64,000 nucleotides of DNA from an uncultured Candidatus Binatia bacterium (GCA_965213675.1 OZ243916.1:2048001-2112000), one strand, 5' to 3'; positions 3,185-42,829 are shown, counted from the first letter of the stretch. Notes: a model not told the origin generated them from the letters alone. Made by a program: numbers and translations.

Positions 3185-5172
3185 GACCCCCTACTATCCC
3201 CCATGATGTCGCCGAGCAGCCCCTCGGTCTCCTTTTCCAGCGCCAGAATATCCGCCCGAATCTCCTCCAACGAACGCAGTGGCTGCGGCTTGTAGAAGTA
3301 GCGTGTAAAGCTGATCTCGTAACCGACCTTCACATTTTCTGCCTGATACCAGGCGTCCGGAGCGTAAGGCAGAACCTCGCGTTCAAGAAAAACCTCGATG
3401 CCACCCGCCTCCTGCAATGGAATCTGCTCAGTGTCGCGCAGGTCGGTGTCCGGCTCGTATTCCACCACGGCGGACCGGCCGTCAACGGTGGCTGCGAACA
3501 GCCCGCGTAACGGGTCGGCCTCGGTTCCCCGCTCGTGAATCTTCCTGATGACGGGCGGGGCGTCCTCGCTGCGCTCGCCGTCTTCTTTGAGCTTCTTGAT
3601 CTCGGCGGCCTTGTACGCGCGGTTGGGATCGATGCCTTGGATGCGTAGCGGCCGCTCGACCGTGACCTTCCAATAGCCGAAGGCGGCATTGTCGAGAATC
3701 TTGCTCTGGTCGCTCTCCTTGAAATCGAGGAAGGTGTCACAGATGCGAATGATGTCCTCCTCGCCCAGCTCACAGTTCTTCTTGCCCAGGTTCTTGCGCA
3801 GGGGCCGGTACCATGTGGTGGCGTCGATCAACTGTACCTTGCCTCGGCGGTGCGCGGGCTTGCGGTTGGTCAGCACCCAGACGTAGGTGGCGATGCCGGT
3901 GTTGTAGAACATGTTGAGAGGCAGGGCGACGATGGCCTCCAGCCAATCGTTCTCGATGATCCAGCGGCGGATGTTGCTCTCGCCTTGTCCGGCGTCGCCG
4001 GTGAAGAGCGAGCTGCCGTTGTGCACCTCGGCGATGCGGCTGCCGAGCGGGGTGTCCTGCTTCATCTTGGAGAGCTTGTTGGCCAGGAACAGCATCTGGC
4101 CGTCGCTGGAGCGGGTGACCAGGGAATACTCGGGATCGCCGGCATGTTCGATCACGAAGCGCGGGTCGCGCATGTCGCTCTTGCCGCCCATGCGCTCCAG
4201 GTCGGTCTTCCAGCTCTTGCCGTAGGGCGGGTTGGACAGCATGAAGTCGAACTCCCGCGAGGGGAACGCGTCGTTGGCCAGGGTCGAGTGCTCCGGGCCG
4301 CCCACGATGTTGTCGGCGGCTTCTCCCTCGCCCTTGAGCAGGAGGTCGGCCTTGCAGATGGCGTAGGTCTCGGCGTTGATCTCCTGGCCGTAGAGATGGG
4401 TGGACACCTCCTTGTCGTATTCGGTGGCGAGCTGTTGCAGGGTGTCCTCGGCCACGGTCAACATGCCGCCGGTGCCGCAGGCGCCGTCGTAGAGCAGATA
4501 GGTGCCGGATTTGATGGCGCCTGCAACGGGCAGGAACAGCAACTTGGCCATGAGCGTGACGGCGTCCCGTGGGGTCCAGTGTTCGCCGGCCTCTTCGTTG
4601 TTCTCTTCGTTGAAGCGGCGCACCAGTTCCTCGAAGATCGAGCCCATGCCGTGGTTGTCGAGGCCGGGGTGTTTGACCGAGCTATCGGTGTTGAGAACCG
4701 GAATCGGGCTCAGGTTGATGTCGGGCGAGGTGAGCTTCTCGATCAGCGTGCCCAGGGCATCGGCTTTGGACAGGCGCGGAATCTGGTTGCGGAACTCGAA
4801 GTTGTCGAGAATGTCCTGCACGTTGGGCGAGAACCCGTCCAGATACGCCTCGAAGTCGGCCGTCAATTGCTGGCGATTGGCACGGGCTCTGAGGTCCCGC
4901 AGGGTGAACTGCGAGGTGTTGTAGAACGCCTGTCCCGCGGCCTGTCGCAGGGCCTGATCCTGTTCAACAACCTCCGCAGCGTCGAGGGTCGCCTTCATGT
5001 CGAGGACGACCTGCTTGCTGTCTTCCAGTACCGCATCGAGCCGGCGCAGCACGGTCATGGGCAGGATCACGTCACGGTACTTGCCGCGCACGTACAGGTC
5101 GCGCAACACGTCGTCGGCAATACCCCAGATGTAGTTGGCAATCCAGTTGAGGGCGTTGCTCCCCATGCCCAT
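3181..5172 (-). CDS. hsdM: Type I R-M N6-adenine methyltransferase
   Basis: YDGACGTGGML SAM-binding motif, SNPPYG catalytic motif, GEHWTPRD. Confidence 0.96.
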   Translation of the reverse strand: MGMGSNALNWIANYIWGIADDVLRDLYVRGKYRDVILPMTVLRRLDAVLEDSKQVVLDMKATLDAAEVVEQDQALRQAAGQAFYNTSQFTLRDLRARANRQQLTADFEAYLDGFSPNVQDILDNFEFRNQIPRLSKADALGTLIEKLTSPDINLSPIPVLNTDSSVKHPGLDNHGMGSIFEELVRRFNEENNEEAGEHWTPRDAVTLMAKLLFLPVAGAIKSGTYLLYDGACGTGGMLTVAEDTLQQLATEYDKEVSTHLYGQEINAETYAICKADLLLKGEGEAADNIVGGPEHSTLANDAFPSREFDFMLSNPPYGKSWKTDLERMGGKSDMRDPRFVIEHAGDPEYSLVTRSSDGQMLFLANKLSKMKQDTPLGSRIAEVHNGSSLFTGDAGQGESNIRRWIIENDWLEAIVALPLNMFYNTGIATYVWVLTNRKPAHRRGKVQLIDATTWYRPLRKNLGKKNCELGEEDIIRICDTFLDFKESDQSKILDNAAFGYWKVTVERPLRIQGIDPNRAYKAAEIKKLKEDGERSEDAPPVIRKIHERGTEADPLRGLFAATVDGRSAVVEYEPDTDLRDTEQIPLQEAGGIEVFLEREVLPYAPDAWYQAENVKVGYEISFTRYFYKPQPLRSLEEIRADILALEKETEGLLGDIMGDSRGS

Positions 5173-5247
5173 CCCTTCTGAGTGAGTTTACTGGAGACGC
5201 GTCAGTGTGAGTGAGTCAGGCCACCAGCTTCGCCCCTGAGAGACTGT

Positions 5248-5526
5248 TCACCCAGCCGCCATCTCTCGCTTCACGTCGGCAAACGCGGCCTCTTCGAGAT
5301 CGAGGCGGTCTCGAATAATCCGTTCGATCCAGACGTCCACGCTCTTCTCCCGGTGGAGGCGGGCGAAAAACGCGGCTCGCGTGGCTACCGGCGCAGACAA
5401 TGGGACGCTAGTGGGCTTGGCTTTCCGGGCTCGGACAGGTTTTCCCCAAGCCGCGTCGTCGTCGGCTTCGGCAACGACGGCGTCATCAACTTCTCTTTCG
5501 GTTAAGGGTTTTGTCTTTTTCTTCAT
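5248..5526 (-). CDS. Antitoxin, BrnA/CopG-like
   Basis: Small protein with C-terminal RHH-like segment; ATG at 5526 overlaps the toxin stop (ATGA). Confidence 0.7.
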   Translation of the reverse strand: MKKKTKPLTEREVDDAVVAEADDDAAWGKPVRARKAKPTSVPLSAPVATRAAFFARLHREKSVDVWIERIIRDRLDLEEAAFADVKREMAAG

Positions 5527-9365: not shown

Positions 9366-10470
9366 GCATCTCAAGGAAGCCGACCGGGTCATGACCATCT
9401 GCAACGCCTGCCGCTATTGCGCGGGCTTCTGCGCGGTTTTCCCGGCCATGGAGCGGCGGCGCACTTTCGACACCAAGGACCTGGTCTACATGTCCAACCT
9501 GTGCTTCGAGTGCCGCGCCTGCTACTACGCCTGCCAGTACGCGCCGCCCCACGAGTTCGGGGTGAATGTGCCCCAGGCGCTGTCGCGGCTTCGGGCCGAC
9601 ACCTACGAGGACTACGCCTGGCCCCGGGTGCTCAAAGGCTTCTACAAGAACAACGCCTTCCTGGTGGGGCTCGTCACCACGGTGTGCATCGTGCTGGCCT
9701 TCGTGCTGACCCTGGTGTTTCAGGGCAGCACCACGCTGTTCTCCGCCCACCAGGGCTCCGGCGCGTTCTACGCGGTGGTGCCCTACGGCGCCATGGTATT
9801 CCCGGCCAGCGTGATGTTCTTCTACGCCATCTTCGCGCTGCTGGCGGGGTTCGTGAGCTTCTGGCGCCGCACCCGCGGCAGCCTCGCGGACCTGATCGAC
9901 GTGTCCGCTTTCGCCCGCGCCGTGAAGGAGGCCTTCGGCCTGCAGTACATGAAGGGCGGCGGCGACGGCTGCAACTACCCCGACGAGAAGTTCTCCAAGA
10001 GCCGCATGTGGCACCACCACTTGGTGTTCTACGGCTTCGCGCTGGACTTCGCCGCCACCACCGTCGCGGCCTTCTACCACCACTTCCTCCACTGGGATGC
10101 GCCCTACCCCTACCTGAGCCTGCCGGTGGTGTTCGGGACGGTGGGCGGCGTCATGATGTGCATCGGCACGGTGGGGCTCCTCTACCTCAAGTCCAAGAGC
10201 GACCTGGACCCGGCCGAGGAGAAGATGCTCAGCCTGGACAGAACCTTCCTCTGGATGCTCTTCCTGACGAGCTTCACCGGGCTCCTGCTGCTGGTGTTCC
10301 GGGAAACCGCGATGATGGGAACGCTGCTGGTGATCCACCTGGGCGTGGTGGCCGGGCTCTTCCTGACCATCCCCTACAGCAAGTTCGCCCACGCGGTGTA
10401 CCGCTACGCCGCGCTGATCCAGAACGCCATCGAGGTGCGGGAAGACGAGAGCAAGATCGTGCTGGGCTGA
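9352..10470 (+). CDS. tcuB: Tricarballylate utilization 4Fe-4S membrane protein
   Basis: ICNACRYCAGFCAVFPAM, LCFECRACYYACQYAPPHEF, multiple TM helices, PYSKFAH; overlaps tcuA. Confidence 0.93.
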   Translation: MPSSEHLKEADRVMTICNACRYCAGFCAVFPAMERRRTFDTKDLVYMSNLCFECRACYYACQYAPPHEFGVNVPQALSRLRADTYEDYAWPRVLKGFYKNNAFLVGLVTTVCIVLAFVLTLVFQGSTTLFSAHQGSGAFYAVVPYGAMVFPASVMFFYAIFALLAGFVSFWRRTRGSLADLIDVSAFARAVKEAFGLQYMKGGGDGCNYPDEKFSKSRMWHHHLVFYGFALDFAATTVAAFYHHFLHWDAPYPYLSLPVVFGTVGGVMMCIGTVGLLYLKSKSDLDPAEEKMLSLDRTFLWMLFLTSFTGLLLLVFRETAMMGTLLVIHLGVVAGLFLTIPYSKFAHAVYRYAALIQNAIEVREDESKIVLG

Positions 10471-29879: not shown

Positions 29880-32249
29880 TCAGCTCTTTTGGGATACCTC
29901 GACGCCCTGGCCCGGCGCCCAGCGAATGGGCGCCGGGAATTCGAACTCCGGCACCGCGGGGTCCTTGAGGCGCTGGTCCAAGGCCCGCAGGATCTTGTCC
30001 GGTGTGATGGGGATCTCGTGAATGCGCACCCCCACTGCATCGAACACCGCGTTGGCCACCGCGGGGATCACCGGCAACAGCGGCCCCTGCCCGGCCTCCT
30101 TGGCGCCGAAGGGTCCCTCGGGGTCGTCGGTCTCCACCAGAATGGTCTCAATGGGCGGCGTCTCCAGGGTGGTGGGGCTCTTGTATTCGAGGATGGACGG
30201 GATCTTGTGCACCCCCGACTTGCGGAAGATCTGCTCTTCCATGAGCACCTCGCCCAGCGCCATGTAGACGCTGCCCTCCACCTGCCCCTCCACCCACAAG
30301 GGGTTGAAGGCGCGGCCGCAGTCGTGGGCGATCCACACTTTGTCGATGCGGATCTCGCCGGAATCGCCGTCGCAGTGGAGCTCCACCACCGCGGCGGAAT
30401 AGCTGTAGGACGGGGTGGGTCCGACGCCGGCGCCCTTGTAGTCGCCGGGATGACGCGGCGGCCGGTAGCTGCCGGTGGCCCCCAGCGTGCCGAAACGGGT
30501 CTCGGCGCGCTCCACGCATTCGGCGAAGGCCATGCCGCGATCCGGCAAACTGCGGCTCCGCACCTGCCCGTCCTCCATCTCCAGGTCGCCGGCGGGCACC
30601 TCCAGCACGTCGGACGCCACCTCGAACAGCCGCTCCTTGAGATTGCCGCAGGCCTCGATGGCGGCATTGCCGGTCATCACCGTGACGCGGCTGGAGTAGC
30701 TCCCCAGGTCCACAGGCGTGAGATCGGTGTCGGCGGTCACCACGCGCACATCCGCCGGCTGAAGCCCCAGTTCCTCGGCCACGGCGAAGGCCAGGATCGA
30801 GTCCGAGCCCTGGCCGATGTCGGTGGAGCCGCAGAACACCGTGACCCCACCGCCCCGGTCCGCCCGGAGCTGCACGCCCGAGTGGGGCATGTCGTTCCAG
30901 TAGATGGGCAGACCCGCGCCGCTGATATACGAGCTGGCGGCAAAACCGATGCCGTGGCCGTGGGGCAGCGCGCGGTGCTTGTCCTTCCAGCCCGCGCGCG
31001 CCGCCGCCTTCTCGATGCACTCCCGCAGCCCGATGGTGCTCACCCGCAGACCGTTCACCGTGACGCTGTTGGGCTCCACCACCTGCTTGAGGCGCATCTC
31101 CACCGGGTCCAACCCCAGCTTCTCGGCGATCTCGTCGAGCTGCACCTCCATGGCGAAGCGCGGCTGGGGCGTGCCGTGGCCGCGCTTGGGACCGCACGGC
31201 GGCTTGTTGGTGAACACGCGCACGCCCTCGAACTTGTAGGCCGGCAGTTCGTAGGTCACCGTCTGCAAGGCGCCGGTGTAGTAGACCGTGGCGAGGCCGT
31301 AACTGCTGTAGCCGCCGCCGTCGAGGAAGGAACGGAACCACATGCCGGTGAGGGCGCCGTCGCGCTTGACCCCGGTGCGCATCCACATCTTCACCGGGTG
31401 GCGCCCCCGGTGCACGTAGAACGATTCCTCCCGGGTGAGGGTGATCTTCACCGGCCGTCCGGTAATCATGGCCAGTTTCGCCACCGCGATCTCGTGGGAA
31501 AACGGGTCGCTCTTGCCGCCGAAGCCGCCGCCCACCGGCGTGGCCACCACCCGGATGCGCCCCATGGGCAGGCCCAGCACCCGGGACAGGGCGCGGTGCA
31601 CGTAGTGCGGCGTCTGGGTGGAGGACCACAGGGTCAGCTTGCCGTCGGGCGTGCAGTTCGCCAGCGCGCAGTACTGCTCCATGGGCAGATGCGTGTTGCC
31701 CTGAAAGAAATACGTCCCCTCGAAGACTTCGTCCGCCTCCTCGAAGCCAGCGTCGATGTCGCCGAACTCGAAAGACACGGCCTTCTGGATGTTGGCGCGC
31801 CGGTTCCAGGTGTGGATGCGCTGGTCCTCGGCCGCCAGCGCCCCTTCGATGGTGAGGATCGGGTCGAGCACCTGGTAGTCCACGTCGATGAGACCCAGCG
31901 CCGCCTCCGCCACCTCCTCGCTCACCGCCGCCACCGCAGCCACCGGGTCGCCGACGTAGCGCGCCTTGTCCACCGCCAGCGCCTCCTCGTCCTGGGTGGA
32001 GGGCATGATGCCGAACTTCGTGGGCACGTCCGCGCCGGTGATGACCGCGTGGACGCCGGGCAGTTCCAGCGCCCGTTGCGCCGAGACCCCGTGCACCAAG
32101 GCATGCGGATGCGGGCTCCGCAACAGACGGCAGAACAGCATGCGCGGCAGCGCCATGTCGTCGGCGTAGCGCGTGTCCCCCGCGCACTTGGCCGGGCCGT
32201 CGATGCGCGGCAGCGGCTTGCCGATGACCGAGAACTCCGTTTTCTTCAT
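29880..32249 (-). CDS. hcrA: 4-hydroxybenzoyl-CoA reductase alpha subunit (Mo-binding)
   Basis: GGGFGGK, HRGRHP, CGPKRGHGTPQ, DLGSYSSRVT, GAKEAGQG; adjacent hcrB/hcrC-like genes. Confidence 0.8.
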   Translation of the reverse strand: MKKTEFSVIGKPLPRIDGPAKCAGDTRYADDMALPRMLFCRLLRSPHPHALVHGVSAQRALELPGVHAVITGADVPTKFGIMPSTQDEEALAVDKARYVGDPVAAVAAVSEEVAEAALGLIDVDYQVLDPILTIEGALAAEDQRIHTWNRRANIQKAVSFEFGDIDAGFEEADEVFEGTYFFQGNTHLPMEQYCALANCTPDGKLTLWSSTQTPHYVHRALSRVLGLPMGRIRVVATPVGGGFGGKSDPFSHEIAVAKLAMITGRPVKITLTREESFYVHRGRHPVKMWMRTGVKRDGALTGMWFRSFLDGGGYSSYGLATVYYTGALQTVTYELPAYKFEGVRVFTNKPPCGPKRGHGTPQPRFAMEVQLDEIAEKLGLDPVEMRLKQVVEPNSVTVNGLRVSTIGLRECIEKAAARAGWKDKHRALPHGHGIGFAASSYISGAGLPIYWNDMPHSGVQLRADRGGGVTVFCGSTDIGQGSDSILAFAVAEELGLQPADVRVVTADTDLTPVDLGSYSSRVTVMTGNAAIEACGNLKERLFEVASDVLEVPAGDLEMEDGQVRSRSLPDRGMAFAECVERAETRFGTLGATGSYRPPRHPGDYKGAGVGPTPSYSYSAAVVELHCDGDSGEIRIDKVWIAHDCGRAFNPLWVEGQVEGSVYMALGEVLMEEQIFRKSGVHKIPSILEYKSPTTLETPPIETILVETDDPEGPFGAKEAGQGPLLPVIPAVANAVFDAVGVRIHEIPITPDKILRALDQRLKDPAVPEFEFPAPIRWAPGQGVEVSQKS

Positions 32250-32557: not shown

Positions 32558-33052
32558 TTAACCGCGCATCGCCCCCACCGCCCGCTCCACCGCTTCGATG
32601 ATCTTCGTGTATCCCGTGCAGCGGCACAGGTTGCCCGACAATGCCTCTTCGATGTCGGCGCGCTTGGGCTCCGGCTGCCTGTCCAGCAGCGCCTTGGCCG
32701 CCAGCAGGATGCCGGGAATGCAGTAGCCGCATTGAGCCGCGCCCAAGTCCGAGAACGCCTCCTGCAAGGGGTGCGGCCGGCCTTGCCGGGCCAGCCCCTC
32801 GACGGTGGTGATCTCCCGGCCCTCGGCCTCCAGCGCCAGCATCAGGCACGAGTAGACGGGCTCGCCGTCCACCAGCACCGTGCAGGCGCCGCATTCTCCC
32901 AATTCGCAGCCGTGCTTGGTGCCGGTGAGGCCCAGATCCTCCCGGAGCACCTCCAGCAGGCTGTGGGCGATGTGGCCCGCCACCTCGTGCGGCTCGCCGT
33001 TGACCTGGAGCCGCATCAGACACTTGCCGGTAATGGTATCGCTGTCGGACAT
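32558..33052 (-). CDS. hcrC: (2Fe-2S) subunit, 4-hydroxybenzoyl-CoA reductase gamma
   Basis: GTKHGCELGECGACTVL, QCGYCIPG, GNLCRCTGY. Confidence 0.85.
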   Translation of the reverse strand: MSDSDTITGKCLMRLQVNGEPHEVAGHIAHSLLEVLREDLGLTGTKHGCELGECGACTVLVDGEPVYSCLMLALEAEGREITTVEGLARQGRPHPLQEAFSDLGAAQCGYCIPGILLAAKALLDRQPEPKRADIEEALSGNLCRCTGYTKIIEAVERAVGAMRG

Positions 33053-33060
33053 CGCGTAGC

Positions 33061-34302
33061 TCAACTTTGAAAGAACCTCCTGGCCTTCAATTCGAAGCGG
33101 GGCAGCGTCCCCGGCGCCACCACCACCACCTCCGGGCGCACATGCAGATTTTCCCGGATGGCCTCGGTGACGCGCGCCCCGAGCCCCGCCGGCGTCGCCG
33201 CCTCGCCCGGCTCCAACGTCACCTTCAACGCGGCCAGGCCCTCGGTCCGAACCACGTCCACGCGGAATTCCTCCACTTCCGCAAACCGCCGGACGATGTC
33301 CTCCAGCGCGCTCGGAAACACGTTGACGCCCCGCACCACCACCATATCATCCACACGCCCCAGAACACCCCCCTCCAGCACCAGCGAGTCGCGTCCGCAC
33401 GCGCAGCCGCGGCGCGGCTCCACCAGGTCGCCGGTGCGGTAGCGGATGACCGGGCTCCCGACCCGGCCCAGGTTGGTCAGCACCAGCTCGCCGCGGGCGC
33501 CGTCCGGCAGCCCCGCGCCGCTCTCCGGGTCCACCACCTCGGCGATGAACTCGTCCTCGTTGACATGCACGGCCCCGGGCCGGACGCCGCAGGCGAAACC
33601 GAAGGCGCCCACCTCGGTGGCGCCGGCGTGATCGAAACAGCGGGCGCCCCAAGCCTCCTCGATGCGCCGCCGGGTCGCCGCGATGCTCGCCCCGGGCTCC
33701 CCCGCGTGGACCGTGATGCGCACCGCCGACTCCCGCGCCAGGTCCAGGTCCGCCCGGCGCGCCTCCGCGGCCATGTGCAGCGCGTAGGTAGGCGTGCACA
33801 CCAGCACGGTGGCGCCGTATTCCACGAGGCTATTGAGCCGCTGCCGCGTGGACTGCCCGCCGCCGGAAATGGCCAGCGCGCCCAGCTTGCGCGCGCCCTC
33901 CCAACCGCTCCAGAATCCCACGAACGGCCCGAACGAAAACGGAAAGAATATGCGGTCGTCCGAGCGTGCTCCGGCCGCCTCCAGCACGGTCCTCCAGCAC
34001 TCGCCCCACCAATCCCACGACGCCTCGGTATCCAGCCAATACATGGGGCGCCCGGTGGTGCCCGAGGTCTGGTGCACGCGCACGTAGCGGTCCAGAGGAT
34101 ACGTCAGGCCGCTGCCGAACGGCGGATGGCGGCGTTGGTCGTCCACCAGCTCCTGCTTGGTCGTGAAGGGCCACTCCGAGATCTGGCGCAGCGCTTCCAG
34201 CGGCCGTTCGACGCACCCGGCGAGCTTGCGCCGGTAGAACGCGTTGGTCCGGAGGACCTCGTCGATCATGCCGTTGAGCCTGTCCAGCCGGTGGCATCCC
34301 AT
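33061..34302 (-). CDS. Phenylacetate-CoA ligase (PaaK)-family acyl-CoA ligase
   Basis: PFTTKQEL, HQTSGTTGRP, DHAGATEVG, IRYRTGD, GRVDDMVVVRGVNVFP. Confidence 0.9.
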   Translation of the reverse strand: MGCHRLDRLNGMIDEVLRTNAFYRRKLAGCVERPLEALRQISEWPFTTKQELVDDQRRHPPFGSGLTYPLDRYVRVHQTSGTTGRPMYWLDTEASWDWWGECWRTVLEAAGARSDDRIFFPFSFGPFVGFWSGWEGARKLGALAISGGGQSTRQRLNSLVEYGATVLVCTPTYALHMAAEARRADLDLARESAVRITVHAGEPGASIAATRRRIEEAWGARCFDHAGATEVGAFGFACGVRPGAVHVNEDEFIAEVVDPESGAGLPDGARGELVLTNLGRVGSPVIRYRTGDLVEPRRGCACGRDSLVLEGGVLGRVDDMVVVRGVNVFPSALEDIVRRFAEVEEFRVDVVRTEGLAALKVTLEPGEAATPAGLGARVTEAIRENLHVRPEVVVVAPGTLPRFELKARRFFQS

Positions 34303-34578
34303 GTCCCGTCAACCTTGCCACGGAACCCCGGCCCGGCTCAACCAATGTCCAGGAATGCACCGCAAGGCATGGAACGCATCCGTGGCGATGACGTATCGCC
34401 AGGAAACCCACTGGCGTCATGTCATCGAATCCCTGACCGATGGTCCCTGGAATAGGGTGTCCGTCTGCACTATGGTACTTTGGTTTCGATTCCTGCTCCG
34501 CAAACCAAAAGACGTTCGGGCTGGTGGCGGACTGCCAGAAGCGGAACACGGGGAAGTGGCATCTGGAGGCATTTCGGG

Positions 34579-35505
34579 ATGGCCGACAAGCGTTGTTTCG
34601 TTCAATTTCCGCATCCTGGAGACGAGCACAAACCAGACCGCAATGGCAAGATCGGTTGGAACCAGAGGCGCTACGCTCACAAACGGAAGTTCATGCAGTT
34701 TCGTGGTGAGTGGATCGACGAGGACGGCGGCCGGCATCGTGGGGACCTGCGCGCGTGGGGCGAGTGGGAGCCCGAATCGGAGCTCATCCGCAGGCTCCAT
34801 CCCCCGAAGGGCAGTCCACGTCATCCCCGCTACCTTTGGAAACCGTATTGGGTTCCGAGGAGCAACTACGAGGGATTGCACGACACCGATCCATTCATCT
34901 TCGACAATGGCTTCCTTTATTCGAACTGCGGCCAGTCGGCCCCGAACAAGCGCGGGCTGAAGCGCCTTGCCGCAGGTTCCGTGATCGCCTTTGGAAGTTG
35001 CAAGAAGATCGACGGGACATGGAATTGGGTGCTCGATACCGTGTTGGTGGTCAGGAACAGTTGCCTGTACGAGCCGCGAGATCCACGGGAATCACTGGAG
35101 GGCAAGGTGTCTGACGCATTTCTGGATGTGACCGGCGGACCTTTGTCCGATAACGATGGGGAACCCTATTCTTCAGGGTATTGTGCCCCGACATCTGAAC
35201 CACTTCGGCTCTACCGGGGTGCGACACCCGACGATCCGGTGGACGGCATGTTCAGCTTCTTTCCCGCTATACCGGCTGATGGTGAATCGAGCTTCGCGCG
35301 GCCGGTCATCCAACTTTCGAGCGAACACCTCAATCCCGGAAATTTGCGGGCTCCCAAAGGGCACGGGCACAGTCGCCAGGCTCAAGAGTTGCGCGGCCTG
35401 TGGGACTCGCTCGTCAAACAGGTCCGCAAGAAACAACTCGTCCTGGGCACGCACGCTGCAATGCCGGAACCCAAGTCCGTTGGGCGCCAGTGTCGTGTCC
35501 CGTAA
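34579..35505 (+). CDS. Hypothetical protein (visibly lower GC)
   Basis: 308-codon ORF after GGAGG; motifs FVQFPHPGDEH, WGEWEPES, DTDPFIF..FLYSNCGQ, LDTVLVV. Confidence 0.75.
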   Translation: MADKRCFVQFPHPGDEHKPDRNGKIGWNQRRYAHKRKFMQFRGEWIDEDGGRHRGDLRAWGEWEPESELIRRLHPPKGSPRHPRYLWKPYWVPRSNYEGLHDTDPFIFDNGFLYSNCGQSAPNKRGLKRLAAGSVIAFGSCKKIDGTWNWVLDTVLVVRNSCLYEPRDPRESLEGKVSDAFLDVTGGPLSDNDGEPYSSGYCAPTSEPLRLYRGATPDDPVDGMFSFFPAIPADGESSFARPVIQLSSEHLNPGNLRAPKGHGHSRQAQELRGLWDSLVKQVRKKQLVLGTHAAMPEPKSVGRQCRVP

Positions 35506-35650
35506 ACAACTGCGACAAGTTGTGCAGGATTTTTGTTGTCGGCAAGGCGCGATGACGAGCAGTGGCGGTTACCACGCGAGGAAGAGCAACACAGCCGGCG
35601 GCGAATAAGGACAGCCAATTATCGCAGGAATTGGCGGGACACGACACCAG
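35487..35650 (+). mobile_element. MITE-like element family B (164 bp)
   Basis: Inverted ends CCAGTGTCGTGTCCCG / CGGGACACGACACCAG; core GCAAGGCGCGATGACGAGCAGTGGCGGTTACCACGCGAGGAAGAGCAAC shared with inverted copy at 58253-58416. Confidence 0.85.
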
Positions 35651-35821
35651 GCGCCTGCGCCGCAGGACGCATGGTGGCGAATCAAACGAAGGGAGTTGTT
35701 GCGCGGGAACCGCGTTGACAGCATTTGGCCGCTCTGGTAACGGCGTGTCAGAGGTTGCGGCGGCGAAGACATGCTTCCGAAGTCATCCTGCAACCAACCC
35801 GCCGAAACGAGGAGGAAACCG

Positions 35822-36862
35822 ATGGAAGGACATGAACCGCGGGGCGTCGTGCATTGGATCGATCATTTTATCGTGGGCACCAACGACATGGTGAAATGGG
35901 TCGATTGGGCGGTGAACGCCACGGGCATCACCCGCAGGCCCATCGTCGGCATCACCACCACCGCGCGCAAGAAGGATGTCCCGATCATGTGCTTCCTGTG
36001 GTGGGATGGCGAGTCCTGCCGCATCGGCGCGTTCCTCCAACCCGAGGTCTACCCGCAGGCCAGGCCGCTGGGCGAGGAGTTGCCGCGGTGCGGCTTCTAC
36101 ATCCGGCCCGAGGATGTGGACCGGCACGTCAGGCGCCTCGACAGTCATGGAATTCCGCACACGGACCCGGTGCGGACCGCGGACGGCGGCGACGAGGGCA
36201 CGGTGATCTACTTCGCCGACCCCGACGGCAATCAGTTCGAGTTCTGGGCGCCGGAGCACATGCCCGAAGGCGCCATGGAAATGGCCACCACCGAGGGCGT
36301 GGGCCGCATCAGCCATGCCGTCTACGGTTCCCGGAACCTGGGCCGCACCGCCGACTTCTTCGGCAAGTATTGCGCCCTGGAGCCGGAAGTGAACCCCAAC
36401 GTGGCCGAGGGCAACCTGGTGCTGCGGCTGCACGCCGGCGGCCGGATCATCTACAAGCTCGTGGACCGGGTGGACGAACGCGTGGCCGGGCACGGTCCGT
36501 GGTGGGACATGCACACGGCGCTGACCGTGCGCGCCGATGAGTTCATGCCCAACTACCGGCGCATGTGGGAGACCCTGCCCGAGGAAGCCATGGCCAAGGA
36601 AGAAGACAGCCTGACCCTGGAGCAGGAGGACGCCCTGCCCGCCCGTACGGGCCTGCACCGGAGTCCGGTGGGCTACCGCTGGAAAGCCATGTTCGAGCGC
36701 GGCGACGAATTCTACGACTGGGACGGCCACGCATTCCATTTCTTCGGCGGCAAGCCCATTAAGGACGACGGTTCGCTGGCCCTGTACACCATCGTGGAGC
36801 AGCAAGAGTACCTCACCGAGGTGGCCGTGGAGGCCGGGAAGGCGCGGGCGGCCCACGGCTGA
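35822..36862 (+). CDS. Tandem VOC (glyoxalase/extradiol dioxygenase fold) protein
   Basis: IDHFIVGTND, IYFADPDGNQFE, ISHAVYG, FYDWDGHAFH; GGAGG before ATG 35822. Confidence 0.85.
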   Translation: MEGHEPRGVVHWIDHFIVGTNDMVKWVDWAVNATGITRRPIVGITTTARKKDVPIMCFLWWDGESCRIGAFLQPEVYPQARPLGEELPRCGFYIRPEDVDRHVRRLDSHGIPHTDPVRTADGGDEGTVIYFADPDGNQFEFWAPEHMPEGAMEMATTEGVGRISHAVYGSRNLGRTADFFGKYCALEPEVNPNVAEGNLVLRLHAGGRIIYKLVDRVDERVAGHGPWWDMHTALTVRADEFMPNYRRMWETLPEEAMAKEEDSLTLEQEDALPARTGLHRSPVGYRWKAMFERGDEFYDWDGHAFHFFGGKPIKDDGSLALYTIVEQQEYLTEVAVEAGKARAAHG

Positions 36863-36987
36863 CGGCCATTTCACCCACGCTCAAGATCAGCCGCGGCCCA
36901 GTTTGGCCGTGGTCAAAGACGGCGCACAACCGGCCCGCACCCGTTTGCGACATCCGGCGACGCGTCCGGTTCAGCCAGGAGGCATTC

Positions 36988-37872
36988 ATGGAAGTGGTCA
37001 AGGTCGATTTCAGGGGCACCAAGGGTATTCCCCCCTCGGGGTTGTGCGTGGGCGTGCATCGTGCCGGGGCCGTGCACCAGAAGATGGTGGAGAAGTATGG
37101 CGACGGCATCGCCGTGTGGTCCCTGCGACCCGAGAACGACTTCATCGCGTTCAAATCGCTGGAAGACGAGGAGGGCATCCGCTCCACCAACGACATGGAC
37201 TCCATCAAGGATGAGAGACTCATCTATGGTGTGCGCGGCGCGCCTCCGGAAATTCGCAGGCAGGCCAGGGAGCAGGGGCTGGAGCTTCTGGCCGACGCCA
37301 CCTGCCCGTTCGTGGTGCAGCAGGAGGAGGCGGAGCTGGAGTTGCTGGAACAGGGTTGTCACCTCGTGATCCTGAGCAGCCGCACGCACCACGGCATCCC
37401 GCGCCTCATGGGCATCGCCAAGGAGAAGGAGCGGGAGGTGTTCATCGTCGAGACGGAAGCGGACGTGGCCGACATCCGCCTGACCCGCTTCGAGCCGGTG
37501 GGAGTCATCGTACAGACCACCTTCTGGATGGAGAGCTATACCGGGATCATGACCCGGATCCTCGAACGCTTCGCCAACGTGCGCATCCGCAACACCGCCT
37601 GCATCGACTCGCTGCAGCGCCTGCCCAAGGTGGAGGCGCTGGCGCGCGACGTGGAGGCGGTGGTCATCTTCGGCTGGACCGAGGGCATGACCAACCGCAT
37701 GGAGGAGGTGGCGCGGGCGTTCAACGACCATGTCCACCGCATCGAGAAGATCGACGACCTGGAGCGCTCGTGGTTCACGGGCAAGTCGCGGGTCGGCATC
37801 GTCGGCGCCAACGAGACCACCGACGAACTGGTGAACGAGGCCGTGGAACGCATCAAGTCCATGGCCGCCTGA
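36988..37872 (+). CDS. Divergent IspH/LytB-fold Fe-S protein
   Basis: GLCVGV, DATCPFV, VQTT, NTAC, WF...VGIVGANET match IspH architecture; substrate-binding residues altered. Confidence 0.8.
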   Translation: MEVVKVDFRGTKGIPPSGLCVGVHRAGAVHQKMVEKYGDGIAVWSLRPENDFIAFKSLEDEEGIRSTNDMDSIKDERLIYGVRGAPPEIRRQAREQGLELLADATCPFVVQQEEAELELLEQGCHLVILSSRTHHGIPRLMGIAKEKEREVFIVETEADVADIRLTRFEPVGVIVQTTFWMESYTGIMTRILERFANVRIRNTACIDSLQRLPKVEALARDVEAVVIFGWTEGMTNRMEEVARAFNDHVHRIEKIDDLERSWFTGKSRVGIVGANETTDELVNEAVERIKSMAA

Positions 37873-37916
37873 GGGCACAGCCGCCGGGAGAAACCCCACG
37901 CGGGAGGGAACCGCAC

Positions 37917-39383
37917 ATGTCGACGATCGAGACCATGGAAGCCAGACTCCCCTATCACGACCTCCGCGAGTGGATGGCCCGGGCCGACGCCTTGGGCGAG
38001 TTGCGCACTGTCACCGGCGCGAGCTGGGAAGAGGACATCGGGCTCGCCGCCGACGCGGTCATCCGCGTGGACGACGGCCCCGCGGTGCTGTTCGACGATA
38101 TTCCCGGATGCCCCAAGGGTTTCCGCGTGCTCATCAACGCGTTCGCCGGCAAGCGGCGGAACATGACCCTGGGGTTCCCGGAGCACCTCACCAAGCAGGA
38201 GCTGAGCCAGGCCTTCTTCGACCACTACATCAAGGTGCAGCGGCGCCTGCCCCACGTGGTGGTGGACGACGGACCGGTGTTCGAGAACATCCTTACCGGC
38301 GACGACATCGACGTCATGAAGTTCCCGACCCCCAAATGGCATCGGGACGATGGCGGCCGCTACATCGGCACGGGCTGCTTCTGCGTCACCATCGACCCGG
38401 AGGAGCGCTGGATCAACGTGGGCACCTACCGCGCCATGGTGCAGGATCCGAAGTCCGTGAGCCTGCTGTTCGTTCCGGGCAAACACGCCTACATGCACCG
38501 CAAGAAGTATTTCGACAAGGGACAACCCATGCCCGTGGCCCTGGTGGTGGGCAGCGACCCCATGTCGTTTTTCGTGGGCGGCACGGAGTTTCCCTACGGC
38601 GTGTGCGAGTTCGACGTGGTGGGGGGGTTGCGCGGCGCGCCCGTGGAGGTGGTGCGCGGCAAGGTGACGGGGCTGCCCATCCCGGCCAACGCGGAGATCG
38701 TGCTGGAGGGCTTCCTGACCCAGGACAAGCGCGCGGTGGAGGGCCCGTTCGGCGAGTGGACCGGCTACTATGCCGGCGGCGCCAGCGAACAGCCCACCCT
38801 CGACATCCGCGCCATCTACCACCGCAACGACCCCATCATCCTGGGCGTGCCGCCGCTGGGGGCCGGCTCCGACGAGATGGCGCGCTACCGCGCCATCATG
38901 CGCTCGGCCATGCTCAAGCACGAGTTGGTCAACGCCGGCGTTCCCGACGTCACCCAAGTGTGGTGCCACGAGGTCGGCGCCTCGCGCCTGCTGCACGGCA
39001 TCGGCATCAAACAGCGCTACCCCGGCCACGCGAGGCAGGCGGGCGTTCTGGCATCGTCGTGCGGCTCGGTGGTGTACGGCTGCAAGTTCGTCATCGTGGT
39101 GGACGACGACGTGGACGTGTCCAACCTGGATGAACTCATCTGGGCCATGCTCACTCGCACCGATCCCGAGACCTCCATCGAAATACTGCGAAAGATGCGC
39201 ACCTCCCCCGCCGACCCCCGGGTGACCCCGGACCAGCGCAAGGTCCAGGACCTCACCAATTCCCGCGTGGTGGTGGACGCCTGCCGTCCCTACGAGTGGT
39301 TCGACAAATACCCCAAGGTGAATGCGCCCGCCCCCGACGTGGTGCGCAAGGCGCGTGAGAAGTTCGGCTACCTGCTGGACTGA
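37917..39383 (+). CDS. UbiD-family prFMN-dependent (de)carboxylase
   Basis: DGGRYIGT, NVGTYR, EGPFGEWTGYY, VVDDDVD; GGAGG before ATG 37917. Confidence 0.95.
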   Translation: MSTIETMEARLPYHDLREWMARADALGELRTVTGASWEEDIGLAADAVIRVDDGPAVLFDDIPGCPKGFRVLINAFAGKRRNMTLGFPEHLTKQELSQAFFDHYIKVQRRLPHVVVDDGPVFENILTGDDIDVMKFPTPKWHRDDGGRYIGTGCFCVTIDPEERWINVGTYRAMVQDPKSVSLLFVPGKHAYMHRKKYFDKGQPMPVALVVGSDPMSFFVGGTEFPYGVCEFDVVGGLRGAPVEVVRGKVTGLPIPANAEIVLEGFLTQDKRAVEGPFGEWTGYYAGGASEQPTLDIRAIYHRNDPIILGVPPLGAGSDEMARYRAIMRSAMLKHELVNAGVPDVTQVWCHEVGASRLLHGIGIKQRYPGHARQAGVLASSCGSVVYGCKFVIVVDDDVDVSNLDELIWAMLTRTDPETSIEILRKMRTSPADPRVTPDQRKVQDLTNSRVVVDACRPYEWFDKYPKVNAPAPDVVRKAREKFGYLLD

Positions 39384-39444
39384 ACGCCCGGCGCTGCCAA
39401 CGGCCCGTTCAGGGAACCCGTAGAAGCGCCATGGGAATCGATTC

Positions 39445-39993
39445 ATGACAACGGGCGCCGGACGTTTCGCACAAGCAGCCCTCATCGGGGACTCGGACGC
39501 CTCCGACCCGAACCTGGAGTTGGCCGAGCAGGCCGGCGAGTTGCTCGCGCGCCGCGGCGTGACGCTGGTCACTGGCGGCCGCGGCGGCGTCATGGAAGCG
39601 GCGTGTCGGGGCGCCGCCCGCGCTGGCGGCCTCACCGTCGGCATCATGCCTGGTTCGGACGCGCGTTCGGCCAACCCGTGGTGCGCTGTCGTCATCCCCA
39701 CCGGTCTGGGCCACGCGCGCAACGTGCTGACGGCGCTGGCCGGCGACTTCGTCGTGGCCGTGGGCGGCGGCGCCGGCACCCTTTCCGAACTGTGCTTCGG
39801 CTGGATCCACGGCCGGCCCCTCTACGTGCTTGGGGGATCCGGAGGATGGTCCGACCGGCTCGCAGGCGGCGACCTGGACCACCGCATGTCCTCGGTGATC
39901 GTCCGTTGCGACGGCATTCAGGCACTGGAACGCGAAGTCGTGCGCTTCTGTGCCACGAAGGGACTCCGTACCCGGGAGCCAGCGCCGGAATGA
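39445..39993 (+). CDS. LOG-family (TIGR00725-type) protein
   Basis: VTGGRGGVMEAACRGA, TGLGHARN, GGGAGTLSE. Confidence 0.9.
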   Translation: MTTGAGRFAQAALIGDSDASDPNLELAEQAGELLARRGVTLVTGGRGGVMEAACRGAARAGGLTVGIMPGSDARSANPWCAVVIPTGLGHARNVLTALAGDFVVAVGGGAGTLSELCFGWIHGRPLYVLGGSGGWSDRLAGGDLDHRMSSVIVRCDGIQALEREVVRFCATKGLRTREPAPE

Positions 39994-40048
39994 CCTGGGC
40001 GCTTGCGTCCCAAGCATCTCCTCGCTTTCAGATTCCGCAACATTGGGT

Positions 40049-40812
40049 TCACTGGGTGAGCTTGCGCTGCATCAGTCTGGCGGCGCAGGCCACCAGGACG
40101 GTGGAGAGGCCGAGGATGTAGGCGACGTCCCAGATGAGCGTGGCGGACGGCTGGCCCTGGAACGCGGCGCGGGCGAGGCGCACGGGGTGGAGCAGCGGCA
40201 GGCACTCGGCGACCCACAGCCAGGACGCGGACAGGCGTTCCTCCAGGGGAAAGAAGACCGACGAGAAGAGGAACAGCGGCGTCAGGAACAGGGTGAAGTA
40301 GAAGCTGTAGAGCTCGATGGTGCCAATGCGCAGGGTGAAGGCCAAGCCGATGGCGGAGAAGAGGAGGCCCGTGAGCGGTATCACCGGCAGCACCCAGAGG
40401 GCATGGGGCAGCGGCGCGAGCCCGGCCAGGGCCACGACGAGGGCGAAGCACAGCCCGTACATGCACGAACGCGTCATGGCCCAGAGCAACTCGCCGGCAA
40501 CCACGTCCACGGGCTGGATGGGGGTCGTGAGCATGGCGTCGTAGGCCTTCTCCATTTTCATGCGCACGTACACGTTGTAGGTCACCTCGAAACTGGCGCC
40601 GTTCATGGCGGCCACGCACACGAGCCCCGGAGCGAGGAACTGGATGTAGGAGGTGCCGCCCATGGTGGTGATGTAGGCGCCCAGGCCCACGCCAAGGGAA
40701 ACGAGGTAGAGCACCGGCTCGAAGAAGTTGGGCAGGAGGTTCCATTTCCAGGTGCGGCGGTACATGGCGGCGTTGCGCCGCCACACCGACAGAGCGTGCC
40801 GCCAGGACAGGT

Positions 40813-40816
<4 letters not shown>
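40049..40816 (-). CDS. ABC-2 permease (NodJ-like)
   Basis: FFEPVLYL, YIQFLAPG, PLFLFSSVFFP; GTG start overlaps ATPase stop. Confidence 0.9.
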
Positions 40817-41736
<920 letters not shown>

Positions 41737-41764: not shown

Positions 41765-42829
41765 TCAGTTGAGACCGTAGAAGCGGCGCGCGTTGTCCCC
41801 GAGGACGGCCGCCTTGTCTCCTTCCGACAGCCCCGTGTGATCGCGCGTCTCCTCGATCATCTTCCGCGCCGCGGGCAGATCCACCTCGTGGGGATAGTCC
41901 GAGGAATAGGCGAAGGGCTCGATGCCCACGCGCCCGGCCAGGTAGGGCAGACTCGCGTCGTTGCCCTCGCAGCCGATGAGGATCTGGCCGCTGGCGATGT
42001 ATTCGGGCAACGGCTTGCACGACAGCCCTTCCAGCTCCGCGTCCCGCTCCATGCGGTCGGCGATGCAGGTGAGCCAGGCGCATCCGCCCTCCAGGAACGC
42101 CACCTTGAGGGTCGGAAAACGGTCGAACCAGCCGTGGTAGATGAACGACACCAGGGCGATCATCAGCGGGATCGGGTGGTGCAGCAGGCGAGAGCCCAGG
42201 CGGCTGGTAAACGAATCCATGCCCACGCCGCGGTTGGAGCCGCCGTGGATGCCCAGCACACAGCCGAGCTCCGCCGCCTCCTCGTACACCGGCGCGAAGA
42301 ACGCGTGCCCCAGGTTCAACTCCAGGCCGGTGGACGGGAGCGTACCGCCCAAGAGCCCCAGCTCCTTCACGCACCGGCGCAGTTCCAGGGCCGCCGCCTT
42401 GGGATCCTGCATGGGCAGCAAGGCGATGGGATGCAGCCGCTTGCTGATGCCGCGGTAGCGCTCGGTGACGTAGTCGTTGTAGGCGCGGCACACTTTCACC
42501 GCGTAGCTGGGCTGCTGGATGAAGCCCATGGAGAGTCCCTCGGTGGCGTAGAGCACCGAGTCGGTGATCTCCGCCTTCTTGACGAACTCGAAGATGTCCT
42601 CGCCGGAGCCGGTGCGTTCGTCGCTGGCCCGGACCGGGTGGACGCGACTCTGCGCGGTCATCTCCTCGGTCTCGGGGTAGTGCATCCCATCGATGGACGG
42701 GAACACCCCCGCGCGGTTCCGCGGCGGATGCAGCGCGTAGTCCTTGGCATCCGGCGCCATGTACTCGGCCATCTCGGGTATGGATTCGATCAGATGGCCG
42801 TCGGCATCGACAACCGAAACATCGCTCAT
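41765..42829 (-). CDS. Amidohydrolase-2 family protein
   Basis: DADGH, IHGG, FLEGG, SSDYPH. Confidence 0.9.
   Translation of the reverse strand: MSDVSVVDADGHLIESIPEMAEYMAPDAKDYALHPPRNRAGVFPSIDGMHYPETEEMTAQSRVHPVRASDERTGSGEDIFEFVKKAEITDSVLYATEGLSMGFIQQPSYAVKVCRAYNDYVTERYRGISKRLHPIALLPMQDPKAAALELRRCVKELGLLGGTLPSTGLELNLGHAFFAPVYEEAAELGCVLGIHGGSNRGVGMDSFTSRLGSRLLHHPIPLMIALVSFIYHGWFDRFPTLKVAFLEGGCAWLTCIADRMERDAELEGLSCKPLPEYIASGQILIGCEGNDASLPYLAGRVGIEPFAYSSDYPHEVDLPAARKMIEETRDHTGLSEGDKAAVLGDNARRFYGLN

Follow-up and report, generated by a model that had tools for sequence, protein, structure and literature searches.

A distinct Binatia-type IspH-fold subfamily, predicted to act as a ferredoxin-driven reductase on a non-diphosphate substrate

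Background

[quoted passage not shown] In a stretch of 64,000 nucleotides from an uncultured Candidatus Binatia bacterium (GCA_965213675.1 OZ243916.1:2048001-2112000), hereafter the window, a plus-strand gene (36988-37872; 294 amino acids) encodes a protein with the layout of IspH, and the next gene codes for a decarboxylase of the UbiD family, which depends on prenylated flavin mononucleotide (prFMN). An initial annotation, made from the sequence alone, had read this IspH-like protein as a repurposed paralogue of IspH. Here we present comparative evidence that upholds this reading, and suggest with moderate confidence that the protein is a ferredoxin-driven reductase in which the IspH/LytB fold has been neofunctionalised for a substrate other than a diphosphate.

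A sequence-network study of IspH from 2015 deals, in the parts of the paper cited here, only with HMBPP reductases, their fusions and their taxonomic clusters (PMC4746011). Our literature search turned up no IspH-fold protein described as acting on a non-HMBPP substrate, the supplementary network files of that study being a place that could contain such a cluster, and no paper on Binatota with UbiD.

Among solved structures, the UbiD-family enzyme closest to that of the window is PhdA of Mycolicibacterium fortuitum, and the phd operon also encodes a UbiX, PhdB. PhdA is, by the portion of its description used here, a phenazine-1-carboxylate decarboxylase, with the structure 7pda (PMC10850782). 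Cofactor maturation of some UbiD enzymes is an active question, for which the excerpts available to us describe dedicated helpers: LpdD, a chaperone that binds prFMNH2 (PMC10865409), and PhdC, an HpaC-like flavin reductase that is the prFMN maturase of the PhdA system (PMC13040415). UbiX, LpdD and PhdC/YclD resemble the IspH-like protein in being encoded by small genes beside UbiD genes, and the known helpers condition UbiD activity. They differ from it in that they have other folds and that none is an Fe-S protein, and the IspH-like family is mostly not found beside UbiD. Where the PhdA system has PhdC, the window operon has the IspH-like gene and a SLOG gene.

Results and Discussion

Fold and active site of the IspH-like protein

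The IspH-like protein matches the Pfam LYTB model (PF02401) over its full length with 138.3 bits, against a cut-off of 24.5; LYTB is its sole Pfam domain, and it lies outside the flavin prenyltransferase, LpdD and HpaC-like families. It falls below the cut-off of all eight NCBIfam models for IspH (e.g. TIGR00216, 116.2 against 187.85). Its AlphaFold (AF2) model, computed from an alignment of 91 rows, has a predicted local distance difference test score (pLDDT) of 92.6 and adopts the three-domain trefoil of IspH. A Foldseek search with this model matched IspH structures only, and the best matches are the closed, HMBPP-bound forms of E. coli IspH, with query-normalised TM-scores (TMq) of 0.83-0.85 (0.85 to 3szu/3ke8). 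The LYTB profile and the structure prediction, both suggested as checks by the initial annotation, thus agree on the fold.

The active site was mapped by HMMER alignment to E. coli IspH chains and by a MAFFT alignment of 122 family members with 92 canonical IspH sequences, and the two agree; the E. coli residue numbers are those we take to be used in the IspH literature, checked against the numbering of the chains. The cluster cysteines C12, C96 and C197 of the E. coli enzyme correspond to C20, C106 and C205, which are kept in 122/122 family members, and the [4Fe-4S] cluster site, with its open fourth iron position, accordingly appears intact as judged from the alignments. H124 and T167 are also represented, by H134 and T177. 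The IspH layout, the three cysteines and the QTT motif had been recognised from the sequence alone, as had the loss of H41, H74, E126 and the SSN loop, and both alignments bear this out.

The remainder of the site differs from that of IspH. H41 is replaced by E49 (E or D in 122/122), H74 by R83 (122/122), and P125 and E126 by H135 and G136 (both in 122/122), while position 126 is a glutamate in 89 of the 92 canonical sequences. S225, S226 and N227 are replaced by E232, G233 and M234, with E232 and M234 present in 121/122 members, and R47 and P48 of the R47-P48-E49 segment are found in all 122. The initial annotation had read the change near S269 as GAS to GAN; the serine is indeed lost, with the register off by one (G-A-S aligns with A-N-E), so that the equivalent of S269 is E276. 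Of the diphosphate ligands H41, H74, H124, S225, N227 and S269, only H124 is kept and five of six are replaced. The protein is further set apart from IspH by two family-specific insertions, KGIP at residues 12-15 and DFIAFK at residues 51-56.

Another LYTB gene (326 bits) is located at C1:3156379-3157209 of the genome from which the window derives (4.53 Mb in 21 contigs), and it passes the equivalog cut-offs (TIGR00216, 318.7; NF002188, 479.4 against 420). A separate canonical ispH, whose presence the initial annotation had wanted checked, is thus found in this genome. The gene immediately ahead of it is hpnE (hydroxysqualene dehydroxylase; TIGR03467, 399.8 against a cut-off of 283; L001:87-2436, corresponding to G000:C1:3154965-3157314), a neighborhood that points to a hopanoid-linked isoprenoid cluster. 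Taken with the failure of the IspH-like protein on TIGR00216 and the replacement of the catalytic glutamate and most of the diphosphate ligands, the co-existing canonical gene supports the view of the window protein as a repurposed IspH paralogue.

Distribution and phylogeny of the family

A word-indexed search recovered 371 relatives at E <= 1e-10, and among the 120 listed the identity ranges from 70 to 95% (best local alignment). These relatives are labelled HMBPP reductase at JGI, or hypothetical protein from metagenome-assembled genomes (MAGs) carrying the names Binatia or 'Deltaproteobacteria' at NCBI. An exhaustive search of 1.84 billion representatives gave only 23 at or below 1e-30; the representatives P0125, P0128, P0134 and P0145 are 74%, 42%, 39% and 35% identical, and the next on the list is canonical IspH at ~30% identity. 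A quick maximum-likelihood tree of 76 rows separates the family, together with the distant P0145, from 64 canonical IspH proteins with a Shimodaira-Hasegawa-like approximate likelihood ratio support (SH-aLRT) of 100 and a summed branch length of ~1.1. On sequence grounds, the IspH-like proteins form a small, strongly conserved and distinct Binatia-type subfamily of the IspH fold.

Of 151 genomes sampled from the class, 11 have the gene: that of the window, all eight others of its genus (86-94% identity to the window protein) and both representatives of a second family. No copy was found in the eight genomes of a third, sister family within the same order, nor in any other genome of the sample. 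For the study of gene neighborhoods we assembled 52 genome loci, 23 with 86-95% identity to the window protein and 29 with 52-77%. A metagenome scan with P0128 alone found no relative, and one with the family alignment added 80 further loci (71-76% identical, plus one P0134-like at 36%).

A dedicated ferredoxin as the constant partner

The gene neighborhoods point to a dedicated 2Fe-2S ferredoxin as the constant partner of the IspH-like family, retained even when it is unlinked. In 27 of the 28 loci outside the genus that have room for it, including the 52%-identical locus L060, the IspH-like gene is followed at 6-137 nt, on its own strand, by a gene for a Fer2-type ferredoxin of ~93 amino acids, and in 69 of 73 metagenome loci with room this ferredoxin gene is found within 200 nt of the IspH-like gene. 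The genome of the window encodes an orthologue, 66% identical to the copy of locus L038, at G000:C1:2482005-2482286, where its neighbors are unrelated genes; this position, ~395 kb outside the window, is the reason that the initial annotation missed the partner. Across the 151 genomes, a ferredoxin orthologue (E <= 1e-15) is present in 10, all of them IspH-like-positive, and in 0/140 of the IspH-like-negative genomes. The sole positive genome lacking a match is a 93%-complete assembly in 100 contigs.

A ferredoxin is thus the likely electron donor, as in IspH, while the possession of a dedicated 2Fe-2S ferredoxin gene of its own distinguishes the IspH-like protein from that enzyme. The arrangement recalls ferredoxin-dependent two-component catabolic redox systems, with which it shares a Fer2 ferredoxin of ~93 amino acids encoded 4-140 nt after the enzyme gene and a common phyletic pattern; here, however, the client is an IspH-fold Fe-S enzyme and not an oxygenase.

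The UbiD enzyme and its linkage to the IspH-like gene

The UbiD-family gene (37917-39383, plus strand; 488 amino acids) encodes a protein that matches PF20695, PF01977 and PF20696 and passes TIGR00148 (269.6 against a cut-off of 244.85). Its closest solved structure is that of PhdA (PDB 7pda; 369.7 bits, full length), with which it shares the GPFGEW motif with the catalytic glutamate (Glu269 of PhdA), the Glu-Arg-Glu network and the metal ligands. A comparison of 14 orthologues and paralogues shows N167, R172, H190, E231, E275 and E280 to be invariant. Assigning to these residues the roles in the Glu-Arg-Glu network and in metal binding that we take from the Fdc1 and PhdA literature, the enzyme looks intact. 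It differs from PhdA in being one of about 31 UbiD paralogues, the number of Pfam UbiD-domain matches in this genome. Expansion of UbiD is also seen in relatives, with 27, 63 and 33 matches at E <= 1e-30 in three genomes and 38 in a genome of 2.9 Mb. A single ubiX was found in the genome of the window, at G000:C1:1315283-1315828, and none within the window itself, as the initial annotation had stated.

The order IspH-like, UbiD, SLOG, with short gaps, is seen in 23/23 loci of the genus. In all 28 loci of 69-77% identity no UbiD, SLOG or VOC gene of this type is found nearby, and UbiD is adjacent in 0/80 metagenome loci. L060, the most distant member with context, encodes, in this order, an enoyl-CoA hydratase, a UbiD, the IspH-like protein and the ferredoxin, opposite a Rieske dioxygenase; its UbiD is a different paralogue, 30% identical to that of the window. 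Orthologues of the window UbiD (E <= 1e-180; 71-98% identical) occur in eight genomes of the genus and in five of the eight IspH-like-negative genomes of the sister family, and none was found in the two IspH-like-positive genomes of the other family. Two soil-type genomes with the IspH-like-ferredoxin pair carry the UbiD orthologue (72-75%) at another site, where SLOG, VOC and IspH-like genes are all absent from its surroundings. The eight sister-family genomes, none of which has an IspH-like gene, contain 27-66 UbiD candidates each, these being loose first-look counts of which only 10 per genome were scored. Complex prediction of UbiD with the IspH-like protein scored 0.00 and 0.01, the mark being 0.32, and weighs neither way.

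The linkage to UbiD and VOC that the initial annotation had wanted checked in homologues thus holds for UbiD throughout the genus and for VOC in part of it, and does not extend to the wider family. The VOC gene lies within 6 kb upstream in 12/23 genus loci, at distances of 28 nt to 4.5 kb, and some relatives have it 29 kb off or on a separate contig. We also considered the SLOG and VOC genes as constant partners of the IspH-like gene and rejected both, close SLOG orthologues (>= 74%) being confined to the genus and VOC often being distant. The comparison of loci suggests that the coupling to UbiD is a genus-specific arrangement and not the defining context of the IspH-like family.

A proposed function and its alternatives

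We propose, as a moderately probable reading, that the IspH-like protein is a ferredoxin-driven reductase built on a neofunctionalised IspH fold. It would keep a [4Fe-4S] cluster with one open iron site, would neither bind nor reduce HMBPP, and would form a two-component reductase with the small 2Fe-2S ferredoxin described above (in this genome G000:C1:2482005-2482286). By analogy with IspH, the reaction would most likely be a two-electron/two-proton reductive dehydroxylation, or another reduction of that kind, with the substrate held on the unique iron, and H135, beside the retained H134 and T177, may take over the proton relay of E126. The former diphosphate pocket would be lined by E/D49, R83, E232, M234 and E276. 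As it holds three acidic residues, one arginine and one methionine in the main clade, the substrate is presumably something other than a diphosphate, probably either a hetero-aromatic acid or a small organic acid whose nitrogen group is cationic or polar. In the genus of the window the IspH-like protein and the PhdA-like UbiD may serve one catabolic route, since their genes share an operon with the SLOG gene. 

Several points weigh against this reading. No ferredoxin gene lies within 200 nt in L074, L149, L150 and L083 (in L083 it is at +303), the genome locus L055 also has none downstream, and the deep P0134-like branch is represented among the loci by L074 alone. The co-occurrence of the two genes rests on few independent events, because the three lineages concerned, one genus and two genera of another family, are kin. 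P0128 and P0134, which are the most distant members, have not kept E232, M234 and E276, so that the argument from the acidic pocket is limited to the main clade, and close relatives dominate the family alignment, ~119 of its 122 members being at least 69% identical to the window protein. The fold is our only guide to the chemistry, and the RNA contigs described below prove neither transcription nor a single transcript.

The initial annotation had offered three functions centred on UbiD, all of them weakly supported. In one of them the IspH-like protein would be a pathway partner of UbiD, reducing or dehydroxylating its substrate or product in a route that combines dehydroxylation with decarboxylation and acts on a (hetero)aromatic or unsaturated acid. 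The IspH-like-UbiD-SLOG unit stays invariant in the 23 genus loci while the flanking genes vary, a second and apparently independent juxtaposition is seen in L060, and the island in the window also has genes for a PaaK-like ligase, a Mo-hydroxylase, a VOC protein and an Amidohydro_2 protein; moreover, 31 UbiD matches in 4.5 Mb amount to an estimated 1 gene in 140, at which frequency two chance adjacencies would be uncommon. We nevertheless hold this to be unlikely: all 23 loci come from a single genus, adjacency is absent from the other family loci (0/28 and 0/80), the UbiD orthologue stands apart in the two genomes with the IspH-like-ferredoxin pair, and it is present in sister-family genomes devoid of the IspH-like gene and was not found in the IspH-like-positive genomes of the other family. 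Chance adjacency in L060 is not negligible either, because there are 38 UbiD matches in its 2.9-Mb genome. The other two proposals would make the protein an accessory factor for prFMN, supplying dimethylallyl monophosphate to UbiX or oxidising and maturing the prFMN of UbiD. The position of its gene 44 nt upstream of an apparently intact UbiD in a window without ubiX, and the precedent of LpdD and PhdC as dedicated helpers, would be consistent with such a role. The former phosphate-binding residues, however, are now Glu, Met and Arg, which argues against a prenyl phosphate substrate, and a single IspH-like gene is set against the 31 UbiD matches of the genome. Furthermore, the UbiD-rich sister-family genomes manage without the IspH-like gene, no UbiD adjacency occurs in 108 wider-family loci, the described helpers have other folds, and the conserved partner is a reducing ferredoxin. 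We therefore regard a prFMN-directed role as highly improbable; a general one fits poorly because of the phyletic data and the loss of the phosphate ligands, and the protein is probably not a general prFMN factor.

The loss of the catalytic glutamate could also mean that the IspH scaffold persists as a non-catalytic Fe-S protein, a redox or iron sensor or an electron-transfer subunit with no substrate of its own; the network study proposes, in its cited parts, that the IspH domains of IspH-RPS1 fusions have a moonlighting role as switches based on the cluster (PMC4746011). The near-invariance of the replaced pocket residues (R47, P48, R83, H135 and G136 throughout, E232 and M234 in all members except one) is instead the pattern expected for a ligand site, the model fits the closed, substrate-bound form of IspH best, and the single LYTB domain is accompanied by no DNA-binding or signalling domain, all of which makes this explanation improbable. 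To the idea of a second, divergent HMBPP reductase isozyme, which the full-length LYTB match might favor, we give almost no credence, as the protein scores under all eight NCBIfam cut-offs, has E126, H41, H74, S225, N227 and S269 all replaced, co-exists with a canonical copy, and is separated from the 64 canonical IspH proteins by a long, fully supported branch.

Within the favored reading of a ferredoxin-driven reductase, a more specific version can be formulated, which we consider improbable: the organometallic mechanism of IspH might serve a second reaction in nature, in which a non-phosphorylated, nitrogen-containing acid undergoes reductive dehydroxylation that is driven by ferredoxin and independent of oxygen. 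A candidate substrate would be the hydroxyproline-derived 4-hydroxy-pyrroline-2-carboxylate or a similar cyclic imino acid, since this would fit the acidic pocket with R83 and the neighbors in soil relatives, which include a gene of the ornithine-cyclodeaminase/pyrroline-2-carboxylate-reductase family, a PrdB-like selenoprotein and AhpD-like selenoproteins. The enzyme of the genus would then be coupled to the PhdA-like UbiD, which would decarboxylate the related hetero-aromatic acid.

Gene neighborhoods of the wider family

Frequent neighbors in loci outside the genus are members of the ornithine-cyclodeaminase/mu-crystallin (OCD) family, a reductive-dehalogenase (RDH)/QueG-like Fe-S protein and AhpD-like 'peroxidase-related' proteins, along with a cupin, a two-domain VOC protein, NMT1-type binding proteins and, in a few loci, a PrdB-like gene. 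We looked for such clade-B neighbors (OCD family, RDH/QueG-like, cupin) near the gene of the window and rejected this link, the best genome-wide matches being 38-45% identical and located elsewhere. The RDH/QueG-like protein (L046:8369-9274 and orthologues) has ~300 amino acids and two 4Fe-4S motifs, often stands beside the IspH-like-ferredoxin pair in soil relatives, and finds its best match in the reductive dehalogenase/QueG family (TIGR02486, 108.6, below the cut-off of 160). In soil-type relatives three AhpD-like (CMD family) genes near the IspH-like gene have an in-frame TGA in a C-x-x-TGA-x-x-H motif (L046:4114-4800, 4797-5444 and 9495-10049), and the PrdB-like gene (L038:8620-9501) has a TGA in LPF-U-PQC; these are probable selenoproteins. 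The AhpD-like copy directly upstream of the IspH-like gene has CxxC in place of the TGA motif. In L150, one of the loci with no ferredoxin nearby, two PIN-domain genes of the toxin-antitoxin type follow the IspH-like gene (L150:7262-8606).

The Pfam families around the gene in the window and in L060 commonly serve aromatic-acid catabolism. The context in these two loci is thus one of catabolic families, whereas in soil relatives it consists of redox and amino-acid-type genes. As the neighborhoods differ between clades, either the substrate is common to several routes or the specificity differs between clades.

Organization of the locus in the window

The initial annotation had described four co-oriented genes, and these are all present: the VOC gene (35822-36862; 346 amino acids), the IspH-like gene, the UbiD gene and the SLOG gene (39445-39993; 182 amino acids), all on the plus strand and each with a ribosome-binding site, among them GAGGAGG before the ATG at 35822 and, for the IspH-like gene, AGGAGG with a distance of 6 nt to the ATG. 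The gaps between them are 125, 44 and 61 nt, the second having been given earlier as 45 nt. The SLOG product, first called a LOG-family protein, belongs to SLOG cluster 4 (PF18306, 137.5 bits) and passes TIGR00725 (129.7 against a cut-off of 106.9), while for the LOG model itself (PF03641) it remains below the cut-off (23.2 against 27). The VOC gene had been described as a tandem. An N-terminal VOC domain is indeed supported, by a single Pfam match (PF00903, 27.9 bits, residues 30-158 of a longer, 363-residue open reading frame (ORF)), and only residues ~15-144 match or fold as a VOC domain. A second domain finds no support in the comparison of the two halves (BLASTP E = 0.26, not significant), and the AF2 model, with a mean pLDDT of 60.8, is confident in the N-terminal half only (~36-65 in the C-terminal half). 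Against sequences of the PDB the protein gave only weak matches of the FosB/ChaP type (E >= 0.019).

Upstream and divergent, on the minus strand, Pfam matches identify a PaaK-like acyl-CoA ligase (33061-34302) and the 2Fe-2S (32558-33064) and molybdopterin-binding (29880-32249) subunits of a xanthine-dehydrogenase-type hydroxylase; these three genes are also found upstream of the VOC gene in several relatives (e.g. L014, L024, L028). Downstream and convergent, likewise on the minus strand and by Pfam matches, are an ABC-2 permease (40049-40816), an ABC ATPase (40813-41736) and an Amidohydro_2 family gene (41765-42829), which are kept downstream in most genus loci, and an MFS gene. The Amidohydro_2 gene has more than 80 tblastn matches in the genome. 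In 21/23 genus loci a gene for an AI-2E-family transporter follows the SLOG gene (e.g. L012:9128-10195); the window has no such gene (39994-40048), the end of the ABC-2 permease gene lying 55 nt past the SLOG gene. Between the PaaK-like and VOC genes is a plus-strand ORF of 341 amino acids (34480-35505) with a GC content of 0.605 against ~0.67. It has no Pfam match, no counterpart in the loci of 52 relatives, and one partial paralogue in the genome (53% over 175 amino acids; G000:C1:2773478-2773999), and by its composition and distribution it looks like a genome-specific insertion.

No Rfam family matched 34000-40300 at E <= 1, a scan for promoters detected 0 sigma-70-like sites, and terminator-like sites did not exceed the level of shuffled sequence; these scans give no clue to a regulatory RNA or a ligand. 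Logan contigs of four runs were aligned to the window at >= 85% likeness. A contig of 1008 nt from a sponge metatranscriptome library extends over 37027-38041 and so crosses the IspH-like/UbiD junction of a relative, and a 1262-nt contig covers the VOC gene and then continues into unlike sequence; from 38902 on the window has no RNA-contig cover apart from one bin. The contig over the junction is a weak hint of expression, with DNA carry-over possible.

Conclusions

A conserved subfamily with an apparently intact cluster site, a rebuilt pocket and a ferredoxin of its own would widen the known chemistry of the IspH fold, and would offer a natural second example on which its organometallic mechanism could be tested. 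It would also correct a systematic mis-annotation, since relatives are named HMBPP reductase at JGI. For research on UbiD, the IspH-like gene is probably not a missing prFMN factor, and the UbiD-rich Binatia genomes, with 27-63 copies each, represent a large pool of uncharacterised decarboxylase systems.

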